A DNA stretch of 64,000 nucleotides from a bacterium (GCA_038128225.1 JAYPJF010000001.1:2155-66154), one strand, 5' to 3'; counted from the stretch's first letter, positions 4,851-58,278 are shown. Program-made: numbers and translations. The notes: generated by a model from the sequence alone, not told the origin.

Positions 4851-4924
4851 TGCTCGGGGTGAGACTCGAACTCACGACCCTTCGCTCTTCAGGCGAATGC
4901 TCTAACCAACTGAGCTACCCGAGC
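4851..4924 (-). tRNA. tRNA-Phe (anticodon GAA)
   Basis: Cloverleaf folded by eye: acceptor GCTCGGG/CCCGAGC, D-arm AGCTCAGTTGGTTAGAGC, anticodon loop CTGAAGA, T-arm GTGAG-TTCGAGT-CTCAC, discriminator A; CCA not encoded. Confidence 0.85.
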
Positions 4925-4926
4925 TT

Positions 4927-5259
4927 CTATTCACCAAGCGTACCCTCAGGAAGATACGCTTTGAGTCCGTCCAGAATACCAGAAAGATCAGAAATGGGAA
5001 TATTCACGTTAGCCCCCAAATCTTGCACCTGCTGCATAGATCCCTGTACCTGATTGAGGGTATTCATAGCCTGATTCAGGGTTGGAGCAAGGTATTGTAT
5101 GTAAAGCCAGAGTGGGATTACGATAAACGCAGCCCAAACGAGCAATTTAAACACTCCCCCAATAAACGCGTTGCGGCGCATCGCCTTCAACATGCGGTTA
5201 TTTTCTCGCGCCAGTTCGTATGTGCGCCGCAACCACTCCTCCTGAGTCGGTTCTTGCAT
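4927..5259 (-). CDS. hypothetical small membrane protein
   Basis: ORF 4927..5307 trimmed to Met17 (MQEPTQEEW...) so it does not overlap tRNA-Arg; one predicted TM helix; weak RBS. Confidence 0.4.
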   Translation of the reverse strand: MQEPTQEEWLRRTYELARENNRMLKAMRRNAFIGGVFKLLVWAAFIVIPLWLYIQYLAPTLNQAMNTLNQVQGSMQQVQDLGANVNIPISDLSGILDGLKAYLPEGTLGE

Positions 5260-5281
5260 GGGCAAAGTATACCATCTATAA

Positions 5282-5353
5282 GTGCCCCCGGCAGGAATCG
5301 AACCCACATTGAGCCCTTAGGACGGGCCAGTTCTATCCATTGAACTACAGGGG
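5282..5353 (-). tRNA. tRNA-Arg (anticodon CCT)
   Basis: Acceptor GCCCCTG/CGGGGGC, D-arm GTTC-AATGGATA-GAAC, anticodon loop GTCCTAA, T-arm GTGGG-TTCGATT-CCTGC, discriminator A. Confidence 0.7.
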
Positions 5354-5371
5354 CGTATCGAGACTCTAACA

Positions 5372-5399
5372 CAAAAGCCGCCCTCTCGGGCGGCTTTTG
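5372..5399. terminator. bidirectional rho-independent terminator between tRNA-Arg and glutaredoxin gene
   Basis: AAAA-GCCGCCC-TCTC-GGGCGGC-TTTT hairpin. Confidence 0.7.
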
Positions 5400-5411
5400 T
5401 GTGCGCACACA

Positions 5412-5645
5412 TTACAATCCCAGTTTTTGCTTCAATGCATCCTCATCAAAACCAACAATGATCTCATCTCCAATTACGATAACAGGCACCCCCATTTGAC
5501 CGCTCTTTTCGATCATTTCACTACGTTTCTCTAAGTCTGAAGCAACATCATGCTCAGTGTAAGAAACTTTATTTTCATTAAAAAACTCTTTTGCTGCATG
5601 ACAGAAATGACATGTTGGCGTGCTGTAGATCGTTACTTGAGGCAT
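5412..5645 (-). CDS. NrdH/glutaredoxin-like small redox protein
   Basis: CxxC active site (STPTCHFCHAAKEF) and glutaredoxin fold motifs (GVPVIVIGDEIIVGFD). Start moved to Met52 (MPQVTIY) because upstream ORF part runs into tRNA-Gly-related sequence. Confidence 0.75.
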   Translation of the reverse strand: MPQVTIYSTPTCHFCHAAKEFFNENKVSYTEHDVASDLEKRSEMIEKSGQMGVPVIVIGDEIIVGFDEDALKQKLGL

Positions 5646-5690
5646 ACGAAGATATATAAAATAATAATGCTTGCCAAGTATACACCATTT

Positions 5691-5709
5691 GTGCGGGATG
5701 CGGGAATCG
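5691..5709. repeat. 19-bp direct repeat of the 3-prime end of tRNA-Gly (copy 1; copy 2 = 5837..5855 inside/adjacent to the tRNA)
   Basis: gtgcgggatgcgggaatcg occurs identically at 5691 and 5837. Confidence 0.85.
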
Positions 5710-5837
5710 GTCACGAGTTTCGCTCTGCGAACCCTCGACCCCGCCTCAGCCCGGCTCGGGCTTCCGGCTTTCGATTCCCACCCTCCGTTACAAAACAACA
5801 GTCATCGTACGCTCACGCGTACTCTTCGTTTGTTTTG

Positions 5838-5908
5838 TGCGGGATGCGGGAATCGAACCCGCATCTGCTGCTTGGGAAGCAGCCATTCTACCACTAAACT
5901 AATCCCGC
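5838..5908 (-). tRNA. tRNA-Gly (anticodon CCC)
   Basis: Acceptor GCGGGAT/ATCCCGC, anticodon stem-loop GCTGC-TTCCCAA-GCAGC, T-arm GCGGG-TTCGATT-CCCGC, discriminator A. Confidence 0.85.
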
Positions 5909-6574: not shown

Positions 6575-7021
6575 GTGATCTACACTACGCCCCTAAAGAG
6601 TTTTAAACCCGCCTTCCAAACGGTAAGTTGCTGTGTAACGACTGGCGAAGAGATGCTCTTCTTGCATCGTTTACCAACGAAAACGTATGGAAATATGTGG
6701 GGCTTCCCTACGGGGAAACTGTGGTTAGGCGAGGACGCTGACACAGGCATGCGACGTGAGCTAGAAGAGGAAACCGGAATTTGCGAGGTTCCCCGTTTTT
6801 TCCAAAGCATCTTTGTCCATCCCGCTGACGAATCGCACCCGCAGTTTACGTATCATCTGTACCGGCTTCGCCTTTCAAAACGACCTCTCATTCGCCTCGA
6901 TAGTTCCGAGCACGATGCACACTGCTGGATTTCGACGAACGCGCTCAAATCGTTGGAGCTTGTACCAGATCTTGCCGCATGCATTGAGTTACTCACAAAT
7001 TCGCGAGTACCCACTGTATGA
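6575..7021 (+). CDS. NUDIX hydrolase
   Basis: Nudix box GEDADTGMRRELEEETGI; GTG start preceded by GAGGAGGAAG RBS. Confidence 0.8.
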   Translation: MIYTTPLKSFKPAFQTVSCCVTTGEEMLFLHRLPTKTYGNMWGFPTGKLWLGEDADTGMRRELEEETGICEVPRFFQSIFVHPADESHPQFTYHLYRLRLSKRPLIRLDSSEHDAHCWISTNALKSLELVPDLAACIELLTNSRVPTV

Positions 7022-7063
7022 TATTTCACTTGAGAGCGCCTACGGGTGCTCTCGTCGTTTTTA

Positions 7064-8857
7064 TCATTCATCAGATTCGCGCATTACTTTCAAAAACACA
7101 TCATGCGGAATATGTACTTTAGTGCCCCCTAATTCTGCGCGACGCTTCTTACCCTTTTTTTGCTTTTCAAGCAGTTTCATTTTCCGAGTCACGTCGCCAC
7201 CATACAGATACCCCGTGACGTCTTTGCGGCGTGCAGATTTTCTGCGCGCCGCGATAATTCTCCCCATTGCTTTAGCTTGTATCTTGAGTACGAACAGCTG
7301 CTGTGGTAACAACTTTTCAAGGCGCTCAACCATTGCCTCACCCTCTGTCTGTACTTTACGCCGCGAAACAATGCGCGAAAATGCGGGCATCACTTCTTCA
7401 GAAACAAGCACATCCAGGCGCACAACATCCGCCTGCTGCAATCCCATCAGCTCATAAGACAAGGAAGCAAAACCCGATGAGGCGTTTTTAAGTTTGTCGA
7501 AAAAACCGCGCATCATTTCACGAAGCGGCATGCGCGCCACAAGTTCTATACGCCCATCGGGAAGAGTTTCAGTTTTCTCAGTCTCCGCTTCGTGATCGTG
7601 AAGCAGCTGCACAATGGGGCCAAGAAATTCTCCTGGTGTGAAAAGTGAGATACGCACCCACTGTTCGCGCACGGATACAATCGAACCATCATCAGGAAAC
7701 CGCGCAGGAGAATAAATCATGAGCTGCTCGTTATTGCTGCGAGTCACTTCATACACGGTCGTGGGTAGTGTTACCACGAGCTCAAGATCAAATTCTCTGC
7801 GGAGTCGCTCAGTAATAATTTCCAAATGCAACATCCCCAAAAAACCACACCGAAATCCTCGGCCCATAATCCCCGATTGTTCTTCCTCATATGAGAGCGA
7901 AGAGTCGGTGAGCCGCAATCTCTCGAGCGCCTGCTTGAGAAGCGTGAAGTCATCTTGGCTTTCGGGATACACACTCGCCCAAATGACCGGAGCAGGACTT
8001 TGATATCCATGCAATGCCGGGGAAGGTTTTTTTGCTATCGTAACCGTATCGCCGACTGAAGCAATACCTGGTTTCTTGATTCCAGTCACTATATAGCCAA
8101 TGTCGCCGACGTGAAGCGCGTCACTTACAGTCTCGTGTGGTGTAAGCACACCAACCTCAGCCGCAACAAATTCTTCCCCTGAAGCAACAAAACGCAACCG
8201 GTCGCCTTTTTTGAATTGTCCGTCGAAAATGCGGCAGTACACAATAACGCCCCGATGATCTGAGTACGAAAAATCAAACACGAGCGCGCGTGTTTCATCA
8301 GCTCCCGCTTCTGGCGCGGGTATGCGCGCAACAATTGTGTCAAGAAGTTCCGCGACACCCGCTCCGGTTTTCCCCGACGTAAGCAAGATATCTGCTTCTT
8401 CGCACCCCAAAAGCAGCGAAACTTCACTGCGTACATCATTCACGCGCGCATGAGGCGCGTCGATTTTTGACAACACAGGTATGACAACCCGATTAAGTGC
8501 TTTTGCCGTGTTTAATACAGAAAGTGTTTGTGCTTGGATTCCTTGCGTAGCATCCACTAACAACACTACCCCCTCCACCGCTGAAAGCGCACGCGAAACC
8601 TCGTAAGCAAAGTCGACATGTCCTGGGGTATCTATAAGATTGATTGTGTATGCGTCGCCTCCAGCGTGCCACTGCATGCGTACCGGTTGCATCTTAATGG
8701 TAATACCCCGCTCGCGTTCAAGCTCCATTGAATCGAGTATCTGCTCCCGCATGACACGCTTTTCAATAGTTCCTGTCACCTCAAGCATGCGGTCTGCAAG
8801 CGTCGATTTCCCATGGTCAATATGGGCGATGATACTGAAATTGCGAATATGGTTCAT
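7064..8857 (-). CDS. lepA: elongation factor 4 (LepA) GTPase
   Basis: MNHIRNFSIIAHIDHGKSTL G1 motif and LepA C-terminal domain. Start set at Met27 of the ORF; its ATG overlaps the murJ TGA stop (ATGA). Confidence 0.9.
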   Translation of the reverse strand: MNHIRNFSIIAHIDHGKSTLADRMLEVTGTIEKRVMREQILDSMELERERGITIKMQPVRMQWHAGGDAYTINLIDTPGHVDFAYEVSRALSAVEGVVLLVDATQGIQAQTLSVLNTAKALNRVVIPVLSKIDAPHARVNDVRSEVSLLLGCEEADILLTSGKTGAGVAELLDTIVARIPAPEAGADETRALVFDFSYSDHRGVIVYCRIFDGQFKKGDRLRFVASGEEFVAAEVGVLTPHETVSDALHVGDIGYIVTGIKKPGIASVGDTVTIAKKPSPALHGYQSPAPVIWASVYPESQDDFTLLKQALERLRLTDSSLSYEEEQSGIMGRGFRCGFLGMLHLEIITERLRREFDLELVVTLPTTVYEVTRSNNEQLMIYSPARFPDDGSIVSVREQWVRISLFTPGEFLGPIVQLLHDHEAETEKTETLPDGRIELVARMPLREMMRGFFDKLKNASSGFASLSYELMGLQQADVVRLDVLVSEEVMPAFSRIVSRRKVQTEGEAMVERLEKLLPQQLFVLKIQAKAMGRIIAARRKSARRKDVTGYLYGGDVTRKMKLLEKQKKGKKRRAELGGTKVHIPHDVFLKVMRESDE

Positions 8858-10514: not shown

Positions 10515-12812
10515 TTATTCACCTGTTGATGTCTCTTTCGCCGCAGCGGCAGCTTGTCGAGCGGTTTCGAGAGCGGCACTCGCCTCTGCACTCGTGGGAT
10601 TAAGTTGAGTGACAACCTCAAGTGCGCGGACCGCATCCTCGGCTCGTCCGATTCGGAGATATGAAGCGCTGAGAAGATACAGTGCGTCTGCGTACTGTGA
10701 ATTGCGCACAACCGCTTGCTCAAACGCCGCGGCAGCATCGGTAAACTGACCCGTACTAAATAAAATACTTCCGAGGTAGAACCACGCCACTGGTTCTTCT
10801 GGGACTGCCTGCACGAGGCCTACTGCAACCGCTTGTGCAGATTGTAAGTCGTTTGCGGAAACTAATAACTGCATCTGTAGCAAGAGCGCAGGAGCATAAT
10901 TTTGCTTAACCTGAAGCGATTGGTTAAGAAACGCTACACCTTCTTCGGCTTTTCCTTGTGTGAAAGCAAGCCGCGCTAATTGCAAATAAGGGAATGGGTT
11001 TGAAGGATTTTCCTGCACCGCGCGTTCGTACGCTTTGCGCGCCTCTTCATACGCACCCTGAACCTGCGCCCCTACCAGCTGTTCATACCCACGTGCAAGC
11101 GCGAGCCAGTTTTGGTAATCGTATGCATTGCCATTTACAGCAGCGAGGCCGTGCTGAATTGATGTTTGAAGCACTTGCTGTAATTCATTTCGCAACTGCT
11201 CAGTGTCTTCCCCGCCTTTTTGAATTAGTGCGTTCAATTGAATAAACCCGAGCTCAACTGCAGCACGATGTGCGCGATCATTGTTTGGCGCAATCGAAAG
11301 CGCCTGTTGGACATACTGCTGAGCGCGCGCAAGATCAGTACTTGTTTGATACACGGCGGCTGCGCGATTTACGAACAGCTCAGCTGCCATAGCGCGGCCT
11401 GTCATGGCTCCCGCATAGAGAGCGCCCGCGATCACAACCACTGCCCCAATGTAAACAATAAAACGTGCTCGAGGCTGTTCATCGCCCCCAATCACAAACT
11501 TCGAGACACTGCCGGATACGCGTCCGAGTGCAACACAAACCCCCGTGAGTAAGAAAGCAAGCGCGATGAGAGCAACGCCCGACGGATACATGATGTGCAA
11601 CCCCCACAAGTACAACGTTGCAATCACGATCCCTAATCCAACAAACCACGCGCGCTCATCAAGTGCTTTTGATCCAACAATAAGTCGAGTTCCACGATAC
11701 AGTACCGCACACAAAAATATGACCCACGCGAGTACACCAATAATCCCTGTCGTTATAAACGCCGTGGGTATAAAGCCAACTCCTTGCACGAAATCCGCAT
11801 TCCAAAATACAGTTTCGTTCACCCCGGCAGGTTTCGCTTTTGCCCACTCACGCACGAACGTGTTTGGGCCCGAGCCGGTAAGTGCACGTGCGCCGTCATA
11901 CACTGCTGCAGCAACTGCCACTGTGCCCTCCCACGAAGGACGTACCTCAATTTGTGCCGTTTGCAAACGCTCAGGAAGTATTTGTTGCACATTCGAACCA
12001 AAAAAGTACAACGTACCTGAAAGAATGAGCGGGAGCGCAAATAGTACCAACGGCAGTAGCTGGCGTTGTTGCGTGCGCATACGAAATGCCGTAACACTCA
12101 AGGCGACAAACGAAGCAGCACCGAGCACTATCCATACATCGAGCATGTTTATGAGAGCGAGGAGCACAAGCGATGCGGCGTAGACCGCCCACGCAACGTA
12201 TCGCGCTCGGTCCACACCCGATTGCGCAAGATAGGCTCCCGCCATTAAAACCAGCAGACCAAGAAAGGCGGCGAGGTCATGCCAGGACCCAACAACACTT
12301 GCGGTTTTTCCAGACAGGACACCACCAAGATCAAGCAAAGAAAAGGGTACTACCAATCGCACTAATGTAAAAAACACAACAAACAAGCCCCCGATAAGCA
12401 CCAGCCGGTAACCGGAAAGGATCGCGCGGTATGAGTGGAGTGCAAACGCCGCAAGCGCAAAAGCAATAAACCACATCGTTATCGCTGTTACCGTATCACG
12501 CTCAATACCATACCCTACGAATGAAGTCGGTATGTTTTCCGTAAACAGAAGCGAAACTGCATAGGAGAGCGGTATAAGTACCGTGCCAACCAAGATCCAA
12601 TCTTTAGGGATCGCGAGCGTGCCCTGTTTAAATCGCGTAATACCCCAAGCCACAAAACCAGTTACTAAGAGCGCTGTCAGAAGAACCATTTTTGCATGCG
12701 TAATCGGTACCCATGGCACGGGTACAAAAAAGAGCGCCAAGAAACCAAGTAGAATAAAAACGGAGAGTTCGGCGATTCGTGCAAAAAAACCGCCTGTATA
12801 TTGTTCCTGCAT
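10515..12812 (-). CDS. O-antigen ligase (Wzy_C)-like polytopic membrane protein with C-terminal TPR repeats
   Basis: About 12 TM helices with periplasmic loop, then multiple TPR-like repeats (AYEEARKAYERAVQENPSNP..., AAFEQAVVRNSQYADALYLL...). Confidence 0.6.
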   Translation of the reverse strand: MQEQYTGGFFARIAELSVFILLGFLALFFVPVPWVPITHAKMVLLTALLVTGFVAWGITRFKQGTLAIPKDWILVGTVLIPLSYAVSLLFTENIPTSFVGYGIERDTVTAITMWFIAFALAAFALHSYRAILSGYRLVLIGGLFVVFFTLVRLVVPFSLLDLGGVLSGKTASVVGSWHDLAAFLGLLVLMAGAYLAQSGVDRARYVAWAVYAASLVLLALINMLDVWIVLGAASFVALSVTAFRMRTQQRQLLPLVLFALPLILSGTLYFFGSNVQQILPERLQTAQIEVRPSWEGTVAVAAAVYDGARALTGSGPNTFVREWAKAKPAGVNETVFWNADFVQGVGFIPTAFITTGIIGVLAWVIFLCAVLYRGTRLIVGSKALDERAWFVGLGIVIATLYLWGLHIMYPSGVALIALAFLLTGVCVALGRVSGSVSKFVIGGDEQPRARFIVYIGAVVVIAGALYAGAMTGRAMAAELFVNRAAAVYQTSTDLARAQQYVQQALSIAPNNDRAHRAAVELGFIQLNALIQKGGEDTEQLRNELQQVLQTSIQHGLAAVNGNAYDYQNWLALARGYEQLVGAQVQGAYEEARKAYERAVQENPSNPFPYLQLARLAFTQGKAEEGVAFLNQSLQVKQNYAPALLLQMQLLVSANDLQSAQAVAVGLVQAVPEEPVAWFYLGSILFSTGQFTDAAAAFEQAVVRNSQYADALYLLSASYLRIGRAEDAVRALEVVTQLNPTSAEASAALETARQAAAAAKETSTGE

Positions 12813-12867
12813 CTTTGCATGATATCACGAGCAAAACAGATAAGTTTATAAGAGTGGAAAACTTATT

Positions 12868-12998
12868 CTTAGCCAAAAGAAGACCCTTTCGGGCCTTCTT
12901 TTGATTCATTTCGCTGCATCATATGCAGCGCATATAGATTTGCTTACTCACAAAAGAAGACCCTTTCGGGCCTTCTTTTGATTCATTTCGCTGCATCT
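12868..12998. repeat. tandem direct repeat (period 77 bp) of a terminator unit plus the last ~18 nt of rnpB
   Basis: caaaagaagaccctttcgggccttcttttgattcatttcgctgcatc at 12874-12920 and 12951-12997. Each copy folds as a 10-bp stem (one A/C mismatch) followed by a T-run; the spacer holds the palindrome ATATGC-AGC-GCATAT. Confidence 0.8.
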
Positions 12999-13326
12999 AT
13001 AAGCCGGGTTCTGTCCCTCGCTTTTTAGCGAGTGTGTAGTCATTTATCTGGGCGCATAGTTACCTAAGCGCTCGAGCGGTACGAACCAGTAAAACTGGAA
13101 CACGACCTTGCACGGAGATAAGGATTTAGCCGTTTCAATCCTGCATTACTGCAGGCATCACCCCGAAGGGGCTCTCGCCTTTCGGCTTAAGCGTCTCTGC
13201 TCGCACCTCTCATCTTACGATGTGTGGGCGTTACCCACTACCCTTTTCCTCGGTTTACCGAGGCCGAGCCCGGACTTTCCTCAGCCAGGCATTACTGCCG
13301 GCCGCGACCACCCAATGCAGCTGTGG
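12988..13326 (-). ncRNA. rnpB: RNase P RNA (bacterial type A-like)
   Basis: Minus strand carries GAGGAAAGTCCGGGCTC (P4 5-prime strand), GGGTAACGCCCAC and ACAGAACCCGGCTTA (P4 3-prime strand). P1 pairing GCTGCAT/ATGCAGC defines the ends; about 340 nt. Confidence 0.85.
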
Positions 13327-13328
13327 GT

Positions 13329-13357
13329 ACTGTAACAAACTTGCACTTCTCAGTAAA
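13329..13357 (-). promoter_or_regulatory. putative sigma70-type promoter of rnpB (TTTACT-17-TACAGT)
   Basis: Minus-strand -35/-10 hexamers with 17-nt spacer ending ~7 nt before the P1 5-prime strand. Confidence 0.45.
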
Positions 13358-13370
13358 GATTGTATGGTCT
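13343..13370 (+). promoter_or_regulatory. putative promoter of the 13400 gene (TTGCAC-16-TATGGT), overlapping the rnpB promoter on the other strand
   Basis: Hexamers upstream of AAAGGAG RBS and ATG at 13400. Confidence 0.4.
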
Positions 13371-13399
13371 AAGGCAGTCTAAAAGCAAAGGAGTGCCTC

Positions 13400-13858
13400 A
13401 TGAAAAAACTCGTTCTCTGCGCTTTCTTCGTGATCTTTTTTGTAAGCTCCGGAGTGGCTCTCGAGGGGCAAAAAACCGATTCGCGATGGGCATATGAGTA
13501 CATTCTCGCGCGTCCGACCATCGAGCAGGATGGATTGAAAGGAATAGAAGACAAACTCGAAGGGGCGCCGTTTGGATTTCGCGTATTCGCAAACACGTTC
13601 TATCCTCAATCTCTCATTTTCGTCGTGCCAATGATTCTTGCAATCCACAATGAAGACGGGAGCATACAACCTGTCCACTGCATTAGTAAAATTAGTGACG
13701 AAGGACTTGATGGGAGTGTGAATTGGGTACGCGTCGCGTGTTTTGGCGATATCACCAATGACGAACAGGCCGTACTTACTGAAGCGGTGCGTGAAGGAGC
13801 GGATCATGTGCTCATGCGCATGATCGCTGTTCTGAAGCGACACCACGTACCTCTGTAA
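13400..13858 (+). CDS. hypothetical secreted protein (signal peptide)
   Basis: Strong RBS AAAGGAG, N-terminal signal peptide MKKLVLCAFFVIFFVSSGVA, followed by terminator; preferred over the overlapping antisense ORF. Confidence 0.6.
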   Translation: MKKLVLCAFFVIFFVSSGVALEGQKTDSRWAYEYILARPTIEQDGLKGIEDKLEGAPFGFRVFANTFYPQSLIFVVPMILAIHNEDGSIQPVHCISKISDEGLDGSVNWVRVACFGDITNDEQAVLTEAVREGADHVLMRMIAVLKRHHVPL

Positions 13859-13862
13859 CACA

Positions 13863-13898
13863 TCAAAAGAGCGCGGCTCCCGCCGCGCTCTTTTGTTT
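13863..13898. terminator. bidirectional rho-independent terminator
   Basis: AAAAGAGCGCGGC-TCCC-GCCGCGCTCTTTTG between convergent genes. Confidence 0.8.
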
Positions 13899-13927
13899 TC
13901 AAAACACTCTTCCAATTGAAACTTTTC

Positions 13928-23103: not shown

Positions 23104-23190
23104 CGGAGAGGGAGGGATTCGAACCCTCGGTCCGGTTGCCCGGACACGTCCTTTCCAGGGACGCGCTTTAGACCACTCAGCCACCTCTCC
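23104..23190 (-). tRNA. tRNA-Ser (anticodon GGA), class II with long variable arm
   Basis: Acceptor GGAGAGG/CCTCTCC, anticodon stem-loop CGTCC-CTGGAAA-GGACG, variable arm TGTCCGGGCAACCGGAC, T-arm GAGGG-TTCGAAT-CCCTC, discriminator G. Confidence 0.85.
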
Positions 23191-58148: not shown

Positions 58149-58220
58149 TGCCCAAACTGGCTGCCGGACTTGGATTCGAACCAAGATAAACAGATCCAGA
58201 GTCTGTTGTCCTACCATTAG
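58147..58220 (-). tRNA. tRNA-Gln (anticodon CTG), CCA encoded
   Basis: Acceptor TGCCGGA/TCCGGCA, anticodon stem-loop ACAGA-CTCTGGA-TCTGT, T-arm CTTGG-TTCGAAT-CCAAG, discriminator G plus CCA. Confidence 0.8.
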
Positions 58221-58278
58221 ACGATCCGGCAATGGCGTGATTTTATCAAAAACCCGATGTATTTGCTACACTCCGGCC

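Follow-up and report, generated by a model that had tools for sequence, protein, structure and literature searches.

A tandemly repeated gene end and terminator-like hairpin form a two-unit trailer behind the gene for RNase P RNA in a Candidatus Kaiserbacteria bacterium

The RNase P RNA gene (rnpB) carried by a 64,000-nt stretch of bacterial DNA, hereafter the window, is followed by a short tandem array, in which the 3' end of the gene and a terminator-like hairpin are present twice. The reading that we favor, and hold to be fairly probable, is that of a clade-typical two-unit trailer, generated by an old tandem duplication, recently homogenised, and acting in fail-safe termination, with a second copy of the P1 3' strand (A2) taking over the pairing of P1 in the longer transcript. 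The features of the locus are reported in Table 1.

Table 1. Features of the rnpB gene, its trailer and the downstream gene; positions are counted from the first nucleotide of the window.
Feature	Position	Strand	Sequence	Remarks
rnpB, class A RNase P RNA	12984-13323	minus		RF00010, 110.3 bits, E 7.5e-33
Putative extended -10 of rnpB	13329-13337	minus	TGTTACAGT	read from sequence
Stem a 5' arm	12995-13004	minus	GCUUAUAGAU	overlaps end of P4 and inner half of P1
A1, native P1 3' strand	12989-12999	minus	UAGAUGCAGCG	cmscan alignment
Repeat copy 1	12951-12997	minus		17 nt of P1 3' strand and tail, then hairpin T1 (12951-12980)
Spacer S, 30 nt	12921-12950	minus		aligns with spacers of relatives (L036, L133 and about 20 more)
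Spacer motif	12940-12949	minus	GAGUAAGCAA	
Stem a 3' arm	12930-12939	minus	AUCUAUAUGC	inside spacer S
P1 5'-strand mimic	12923-12930	minus	CGCUGCAU	inside spacer S
Mini-P1 hairpin	12912-12930	minus	CGCUGCAU-AUG-AUGCAGCG	-12 kcal/mol, z = -3.2
Repeat copy 2	12874-12920	minus		A2 (12912-12920) and tail, then hairpin T2 (12874-12903)
Putative extended -10 of downstream gene	12819-12827	minus	TGATATCAT	read from sequence
Downstream 765-aa gene, C-terminal TPR repeats	10515-12812	minus		ORF list, Pfam

The original prediction had recognised rnpB on the minus strand from its P4 strands and from the pairing of its ends. The covariance-model search with RF00010 places it there, above the gathering score of 100, in an alignment which spans model positions 1-367 and is not truncated. 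The two quoted P4 strands, GAGGAAAGTCCGGGCTC and ACAGAACCCGGCTTA, are located at 13266-13282 and at 13000-13014, and the universally conserved P4 strands (GAGGAAAGUCCGGGC ... ACAGAAcCCGGCUUA) are both found in the gene. P1 is formed, in the cmscan alignment, by the pairing of GCUGCAUUG with UAGAUGCAGC; the 5' strand GCUGCAUUG, at 13313-13321, is the partner of A1, in a duplex of -12.9 kcal/mol. In Lui et al. (2021, PMC8172020), RNase P RNAs from CPR bacteria are described as scoring near or below the Rfam thresholds, with helices missing or extended; the modest 110.3 bits of the window gene are consistent with this divergence.

Transcription of rnpB is expected to start at about 13321-13323, downstream of the putative extended -10 element; in the 5' flanks of relatives, a TGnTAnnnT element is found equally far before the P1 5' strand. 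The scan for sigma-70 -35/-10 elements called no promoter for rnpB, and the consensus promoter and terminator scan was empty over 12300-13800; CPR promoters, as judged from these sequences, seem to rely on the extended -10 element. Both such elements of the window lie, as TGnTAnnnT, 6-10 nt before a start codon or an RNA 5' end, where neither a -35 element nor a Shine-Dalgarno sequence is visible. They are also found just past the last terminator in L012, L036, L092, L103, L133 and other relatives, which suggests that leaderless mRNAs and -35-independent promoters may be in use in the clade.

The duplication proposed behind the gene, with a period of 77 bp, was confirmed as an exact direct repeat of 47 nt: the two copies are identical at 47 of 47 positions, their starts are 77 nt apart, no match is given by any of 100 shuffles, and a third copy is absent from the 64,000-nt window. 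In both copies, GATGCAGCGAAATGAAT, which represents the P1 3' strand and tail, precedes the hairpin CAAAAGAAGGCCC-GAAA-GGGTCTTCTTTTG. The first part, GAUGCAGCGAAAUGAAU, includes the outer P1 3' strand and the tail; the gene end is thus duplicated, as proposed, but over 14 nt within the limits set by Rfam, or 17 nt when counted as far as the hairpin, instead of about 18 nt. The hairpin, which may also be written CAAAAGAAGGCCC-GAAA-GGGUCUUCUUUUG, has a 13-bp stem with one G.U pair, a folding energy of -20.3 kcal/mol and a z-score of -5.6: the stem is the one originally seen, and its supposed mismatch is really the G.U wobble. T1 is a stem-loop with a GAAA loop, 3-20 nt beyond the rnpB end. The T-run assigned to the hairpin is present but short, as the GC core is followed by UUCUUUUG, where four consecutive Us, paired to the upstream A-run, precede a G. 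The consensus terminator scan called neither T1 nor T2, because its stem extension absorbs the U-run, paired with the A-run. Tandem Repeats Finder reported no repeat at the locus, since the array has only about 1.6 periods. In each copy, on the minus strand, an AUG within GAAAUGAAU opens a small ORF, of 12 codons in copy 1 (12948-12986, MNQKKARKGLLL) and of 93 codons in copy 2 (12628-12909), out of frame over the next gene; these ORFs, devoid of a ribosome-binding site, are probably meaningless. ORFs have been noted in the repeats of E. coli rnpB as well.

Three elements are found in the 30-nt spacer between the copies: the motif, one arm of a helix here called stem a, and a mimic of the P1 5' strand. 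The arms of stem a constitute an inverted repeat (I6), complementary at 9 of 10 positions and paired in the minimum-free-energy fold. The mimic pairs with A2 in the 8-bp mini-P1 hairpin, which is present when the entire trailer is folded to minimum free energy; with the P1 5' strand itself, A2 forms a duplex of -15.5 kcal/mol, better than that of A1. The palindrome ATATGC-AGC-GCATAT, placed between the copies by the original prediction, does exist (12921-12935), but is weak (-3.3 kcal/mol) and overlapped by a stronger hairpin.

By sequence comparison, the host is an uncultured Candidatus Kaiserbacteria (CPR/Patescibacteria) bacterium. A class II ribonucleotide reductase (RNR) gene lies two genes upstream of rnpB, past a 152-aa gene, and its best matches, at 68-78% amino acid identity, come from MAGs of Candidatus Kaiserbacteria and other Paceibacteria and from metagenome contigs; genome and metagenome scans with this neighbour found no relative above 78% amino acid identity. 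rnpB is located near RNR in 59 fetched loci, from which 49 unique 3' flanks were compared. The 152-aa ORF (13400-13858, plus strand), divergent from rnpB, has AAGGAG as its Shine-Dalgarno sequence, and its product is hydrophobic at the N-terminus; it is unmatched in Pfam, has a single homologue, a 98% identical strain variant, among 5.8 billion proteins, and appears by these searches to be a lineage-specific orphan. Between the convergent ends of the 152-aa and RNR genes, a symmetric hairpin, AAAAGAGCGCGGC...GCCGCGCUCUUUU (13860-13904, both strands, -24 to -26 kcal/mol), is likely a bidirectional terminator, of the same design as T1 and T2. Hairpins composed, like these two, of A-run, GC-stem and U-run are found at other gene ends in the window. 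Five tRNA genes were also located, all on the minus strand (4851-5908, 23104-23190, 58161-58231), three of them clustered in about 1 kb.

An alignment of the whole trailer holds for 22 of the 49 unique Kaiserbacteria rnpB 3' flanks. The order of the elements in these flanks is GGCUUA, A1 (UAUNNNNGCAGYG), a first hairpin, the motif, an arm complementary to the start of A1, a short variable hairpin, A2 (UAU-NNNN-GCAG) and then a different, canonical terminator. The motif of the clade, GAGCAAGCAA (CCGAG-CAAGCAA), sits between the first hairpin and the stem a arm; the first hairpin is usually GAGCGAAGC-GAAAAA-GCUUCGCUUUUUCGUUUCC or a compensated variant. The trailer module was defined as GAGYAAGCAA, 49-54 nt past the end of the P4 3' strand, followed by the stem a arm. 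The window features both: its motif, GAGTAAGC, is found 50 nt past the end of the P4 3' strand (GGCTTA), compared with 49-54 nt in relatives, and its arms AUCUAUA and UAUAGAU form seven Watson-Crick pairs out of seven, a value reached by none of the cross-locus controls. The duplication is thus not lacking in relatives; its lack would have counted against the original prediction.

Positions of A2 are given relative to the P4 3' strand, with counting begun at the initial A of its ACAGAA. In 20 of the 49 loci, 17 of which belong to the extended class, the sequence most like A1 lies between +92 and +102; about 2.5 such loci would be expected. In the window, A2 is found at +92 and is followed by T2. 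A comparison of own and cross matches, addressing the descent of A2 from A1, gives only a modest difference (a mean of 3.7 versus 4.2 mismatches), and the positional clustering is the stronger indication. A2 keeps the GCAG core and the preceding UAU in lineages where T1 and T2 have diverged completely. Ten occurrences of the conserved T1 sequence were counted in 798 kb of loci, and each of them follows rnpB. The conserved first hairpin, GAGCGAAGC-GAAAAA-GCTTCGCTTTTTCGTTTCC, is unmatched in the window at up to 3 substitutions: here the first hairpin is an exact copy of the second, yet it occupies the same alignment columns as that of the relatives. Since its T1 is unlike theirs, the window may work differently from them. 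Its spacer and A2, on the other hand, are readily aligned to their counterparts in L036 and L133. An Rfam search of the trailer, with E up to 10, found chance-level matches only (best 18.7 bits versus a cutoff of 64), and on this comparison the trailer belongs to no described RNA family.

As spacer and A2 are homologous to those of some 20 distant relatives, the two-unit architecture must be old. The suggestion that the array was generated by slippage is thus half right: what is recent is the identity of the two units, not their arrangement. From the sequences compared, the 47/47 identity is best read as the recent homogenisation of an old architecture.

Structure was evaluated on a sequence-only MAFFT alignment of 24 trailers, in which 15 of 17 pairs show compensatory double changes according to RNAalifold. 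For stem a and the long hairpin together, 84.5% of the cells are paired, compared with 70.4% in shuffled alignments, none of 500 reaching the observed value; these counts are not to be taken as probabilities, because the sequences are related, and the variety of pair types and the control obtained by sliding the partners by 1-3 columns, where pairing drops to 32-51%, are the stronger arguments. In the long hairpin, pairing reaches 96.4% and each of the 13 pairs shows double changes; for stem a, double changes are found in five of seven. When complementarity of the stem a arms within loci was compared with that across loci, none of 10,000 permutations was as good as the observed arrangement. 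The spacer arm is complementary to A1 and not to A2, in variants which differ among loci: UAUAGAU/AUCUAUA in the window, UAUCGAC/GUCGAUA in L133, UACAGAC/GUCUGUA in L033. The MAFFT registers of the short, terminator form of the first hairpin differ between subfamilies. Two mutually exclusive registers may be drawn for the region of this hairpin (trailer alignment A2, columns 24-60): one is terminator-like, with a short stem and then a U-run, while in the other a longer stem is formed and the A-rich loop pairs the U-run. In L036 and L006, the segment past the hairpin looks like the 5' end of rnpB (UUUCUGC..., CGCAU...).

The array undergoes turnover among relatives. The L139 sequence equals that of L036 minus exactly 77 nt between A1 and A2, and L028 retains only the A2-type strand and the T2 of its relative L032. 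At least three trailer units are found in L039, L048, L090, L099 and L131; these arrays lie 3' of rnpB, that of L048 at about 6950-7250. Among the P1 3' copies of L039 and L099, the last is closer to the first than the middle one is, which hints at unequal crossing-over or at exchange between lineages. On a rough rnpB tree, loci of the extended class are interleaved with those of the simple class, and the simple relatives look like A1/A2 recombination deletions. Recombination between P1 3' copies thus appears to delete, expand and homogenise the array. One terminator suffices in relatives of the simple class, which makes the second unit dispensable; the turnover also shows that an A2-type strand can serve as the sole P1 3' strand of the gene. 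The first hairpin of L090 and L131 (for example GAAGUGGGAGUGC-UU-GCACUCCCACUUC) lacks a U-run altogether; it cannot therefore be an intrinsic terminator and must be part of the primary transcript.

In the favored interpretation, the trailer would have been born by tandem duplication of the rnpB 3' end, and its units would have been homogenised to 47/47 by gene conversion or by template switching between the copies; A1/A2 similarity could also be kept by conversion instead of selection. A polymerase starting at about 13322 would usually stop at T1, releasing a standard RNase P RNA, with P1 closed by A1. Polymerases reading through T1 would continue over the spacer and A2 to T2, the second of two identical intrinsic terminators, and would stop there, 50 nt before the promoter of the next gene, a form of fail-safe termination or insulation. 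In the read-through RNA, the spacer arm would pair with the start of A1 to form stem a and A2 could take over P1, so that the long transcript would become a folded molecule, with no loose tail. T1 and T2 most likely act as a tandem terminator, and A2 may offer an alternative closing strand for P1.

Partition-function folding is in line with the proposed swap: the partner of the 5' strand is A1 in the short RNA and becomes A2 in the long RNA of L036, L129, L039, L033 and L015, and partly so in the window and in L133; for the long RNA of the window the summed pair probability is 4.7 for A1 versus 2.8 for A2. These folds are based on nearest-neighbour energies without pseudoknots, and the numbers are reliable for only about ten loci; the P1 5' strand was missed by the automatic detection in roughly half of all loci. 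The swap might serve to rescue the read-through RNA, to produce a second isoform or to mark the RNA for decay.

The next gene has features that fit with insulation. That two consecutive hairpins separate it from rnpB is plain from the exact repeat, which carries both. The proposed insulation from rnpB read-through is plausible: the gene features a putative extended -10 element of its own, a few nucleotides before its ATG (12810-12812) and 50 nt beyond the end of T2, and its mRNA is apparently leaderless, or nearly so. For a strongly transcribed RNA gene, followed by a gene with its own putative promoter, two terminators in series are sensible as a fail-safe device. A TGTGATAnnAT element likewise follows the last terminator in relatives, where the next gene may be a homologue of the one in the window (as judged from shared ORF starts), MurJ, or a gene on the opposite strand. 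As to the nature of the downstream gene, the TPR part of its label is supported by the Pfam matches to the C-terminal repeats, while "O-antigen-ligase" is not, since these repeats are all that Pfam matches; the N-terminal 500 aa (11313-12812, minus strand) match no Pfam family, even when E values up to 1 are admitted.

Short exact repeats are a classic cause of assembly errors, and a single terminator might have been falsely expanded into two. Exact-protein look-ups of both flanking genes led to k=31 contigs from several public read sets, independent of each other. Those from SRR26337526, DRR685536, DRR404984 and SRR30758783 (the last a variant strain, which over these 450 nt differs from the window by two SNPs, located in rnpB) stop 30 nt into the repeat, entered from the unique base preceding copy 1, while those from DRR685536 and DRR404984 open with its last 30 nt, followed by the unique base of copy 2. 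Unitigs end exactly there because the 47-mer has two left and two right neighbours in the reads. All junctions (rnpB/repeat, repeat/spacer, spacer/repeat, repeat/downstream) are thus required in the reads, and the 77-nt unit has the length of the L036/L139 indel. With breakpoints at base resolution, for entry in four read sets and for exit in two, the collapse or expansion allowed for in the original prediction is contradicted by four independent data sets, and an artefact, here rejected, is hardly conceivable. A scar left by a mobile element, through att-like duplication of its target at the rnpB 3' end, could also account for direct repeats of a gene end: elements integrating at tRNA or tmRNA genes duplicate their target in this way, and an array upstream of a gene might alternatively be its leader or attenuator. 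Here, though, the copies are only 30 nt apart, with a spacer conserved clade-wide, no integrase gene is found between or beside them, the module is absent elsewhere in the 798 kb of loci, and the downstream gene, which has its own putative promoter, varies among relatives. Both the scar and the leader were rejected on account of the spacer, of the missing integrase and of the changing neighbour, and together they are very improbable. It is rather unlikely, too, that the array is a neutral by-product of slippage or unequal crossing-over at gene-end repeats, with no more function than that of a single terminator. Only two copies, fully identical, are present in the window, copy number varies from one to at least three among relatives, deletion breakpoints fall within the repeats and the two classes are interleaved on the tree, all as such a process would predict. 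Yet motif, stem a and long hairpin are kept, with compensatory changes, across lineages with about 70-76% amino acid identity to the window in RNR, the conserved T1 sequence is found solely after rnpB, and a relic without function would have decayed.

A further interpretation gives the long RNA a role of its own. The read-through product would be a second, selected RNase P RNA, with A2 as the true P1 3' strand; A1, T1 and spacer would form a rod-like helix between P4 and P1, with the conserved A-rich internal loop CCGAGCAAGCAA, and the terminator region would have been converted into an expansion segment. Stem a and the long hairpin covary, the spacer arm fits A1 and not A2 (seven pairs out of seven in the window, L036, L133 and L033), A2 retains its core and UAU beside fully diverged T1 and T2, it equals or beats A1 as partner of the 5' strand, a switch from A1 to A2 is predicted in long RNAs, and the first hairpin of L090 and L131, devoid of a U-run, must be transcribed through. 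Against this, the module is lost in L139 and L028 and is thus dispensable, T1 of the window resembles a competent terminator, so that little long RNA may arise, the basis of the proposal is folding prediction and, to our knowledge, no insertion between P4 and P1 of an RNase P RNA has been described. We regard it as unlikely. If this interpretation were true, the expansion segment of a universal ribozyme would have been born from the duplication of its own 3' end and terminator, and the repeats after E. coli rnpB, unexplained for 40 years, might be explained as well.

The fail-safe trailer may be compared with these repeats. Reed and Altman reportedly described, in 1983, 113-bp repeats after E. 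coli rnpB, starting inside the 3' end of the gene and including the terminator. In E. coli O157:H7 (L167, 1528-1764), where two full copies and a partial third one are present, the repeat covers 82 nt, with a spacing of 113 bp and 91% identity. K-12 carries 3.5 copies, so copy number appears to vary among strains. The second O157:H7 copy has an insertion within the former P4 3' strand. As in E. coli, the tandem unit starts in the 3' end of the gene, contains the P1 3' strand and a terminator, putative in the window, and is arranged head to tail. Unlike in E. coli, it is 77 nt long instead of 113 bp; the E. coli unit also covers the 3' strands of P2 and P4, and the Kaiserbacteria trailer, in a CPR host, is distinguished by its conserved spacer motif and covarying helices. 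Terminator and spacer sequences of the window show no homology to those of E. coli outside rnpB itself, so the likeness is one of analogy and not of membership. Tandem fail-safe intrinsic terminators are also known to follow highly expressed stable RNA operons, such as rrnB with T1 and T2. There, as is proposed here, two signals composed of stem-loop and U-run end a strongly transcribed non-coding RNA gene and shield the next unit; the rrn terminators, however, are unrelated sequences, while the putative ones of the window are exact copies, and each of them follows a copy of the strand that forms the terminal helix of the RNA.

Other papers searched contain no account of rnpB 3' repeats; a terminator named 'rnpBT1', with a nested outer structure around it, is found in PMC3643576. 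The window gene, at 110 bits near the cutoff of 100, resembles the CPR RNase P RNAs of PMC8172020, whose passages on RNase P RNA describe losses and extensions of internal helices and mention neither a duplicated 3' end nor a trailer.

In conclusion, the repeat is real and probably functional, and the duplicated-tail arrangement is in itself already known from E. coli rnpB. For annotation some caution is needed, as k=31 assemblies break at the repeat, in four read sets, and covariance models end at A1. RNase P RNA is a universal, essential ribozyme, yet the making and the control of its 3' end are poorly known outside E. coli. That a host-dependent CPR lineage, distant at the phylum level, shares the E. 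coli arrangement, here with a structure supported by covariation, suggests that the arrangement serves a general purpose, for instance in fail-safe termination, in the quality control of read-through RNA or as an alternative closing strand, and is not the accident of one genome. The A1/A2 strand swap offers a concrete, testable model, and the element would gain in interest if the long isoform proved functional.
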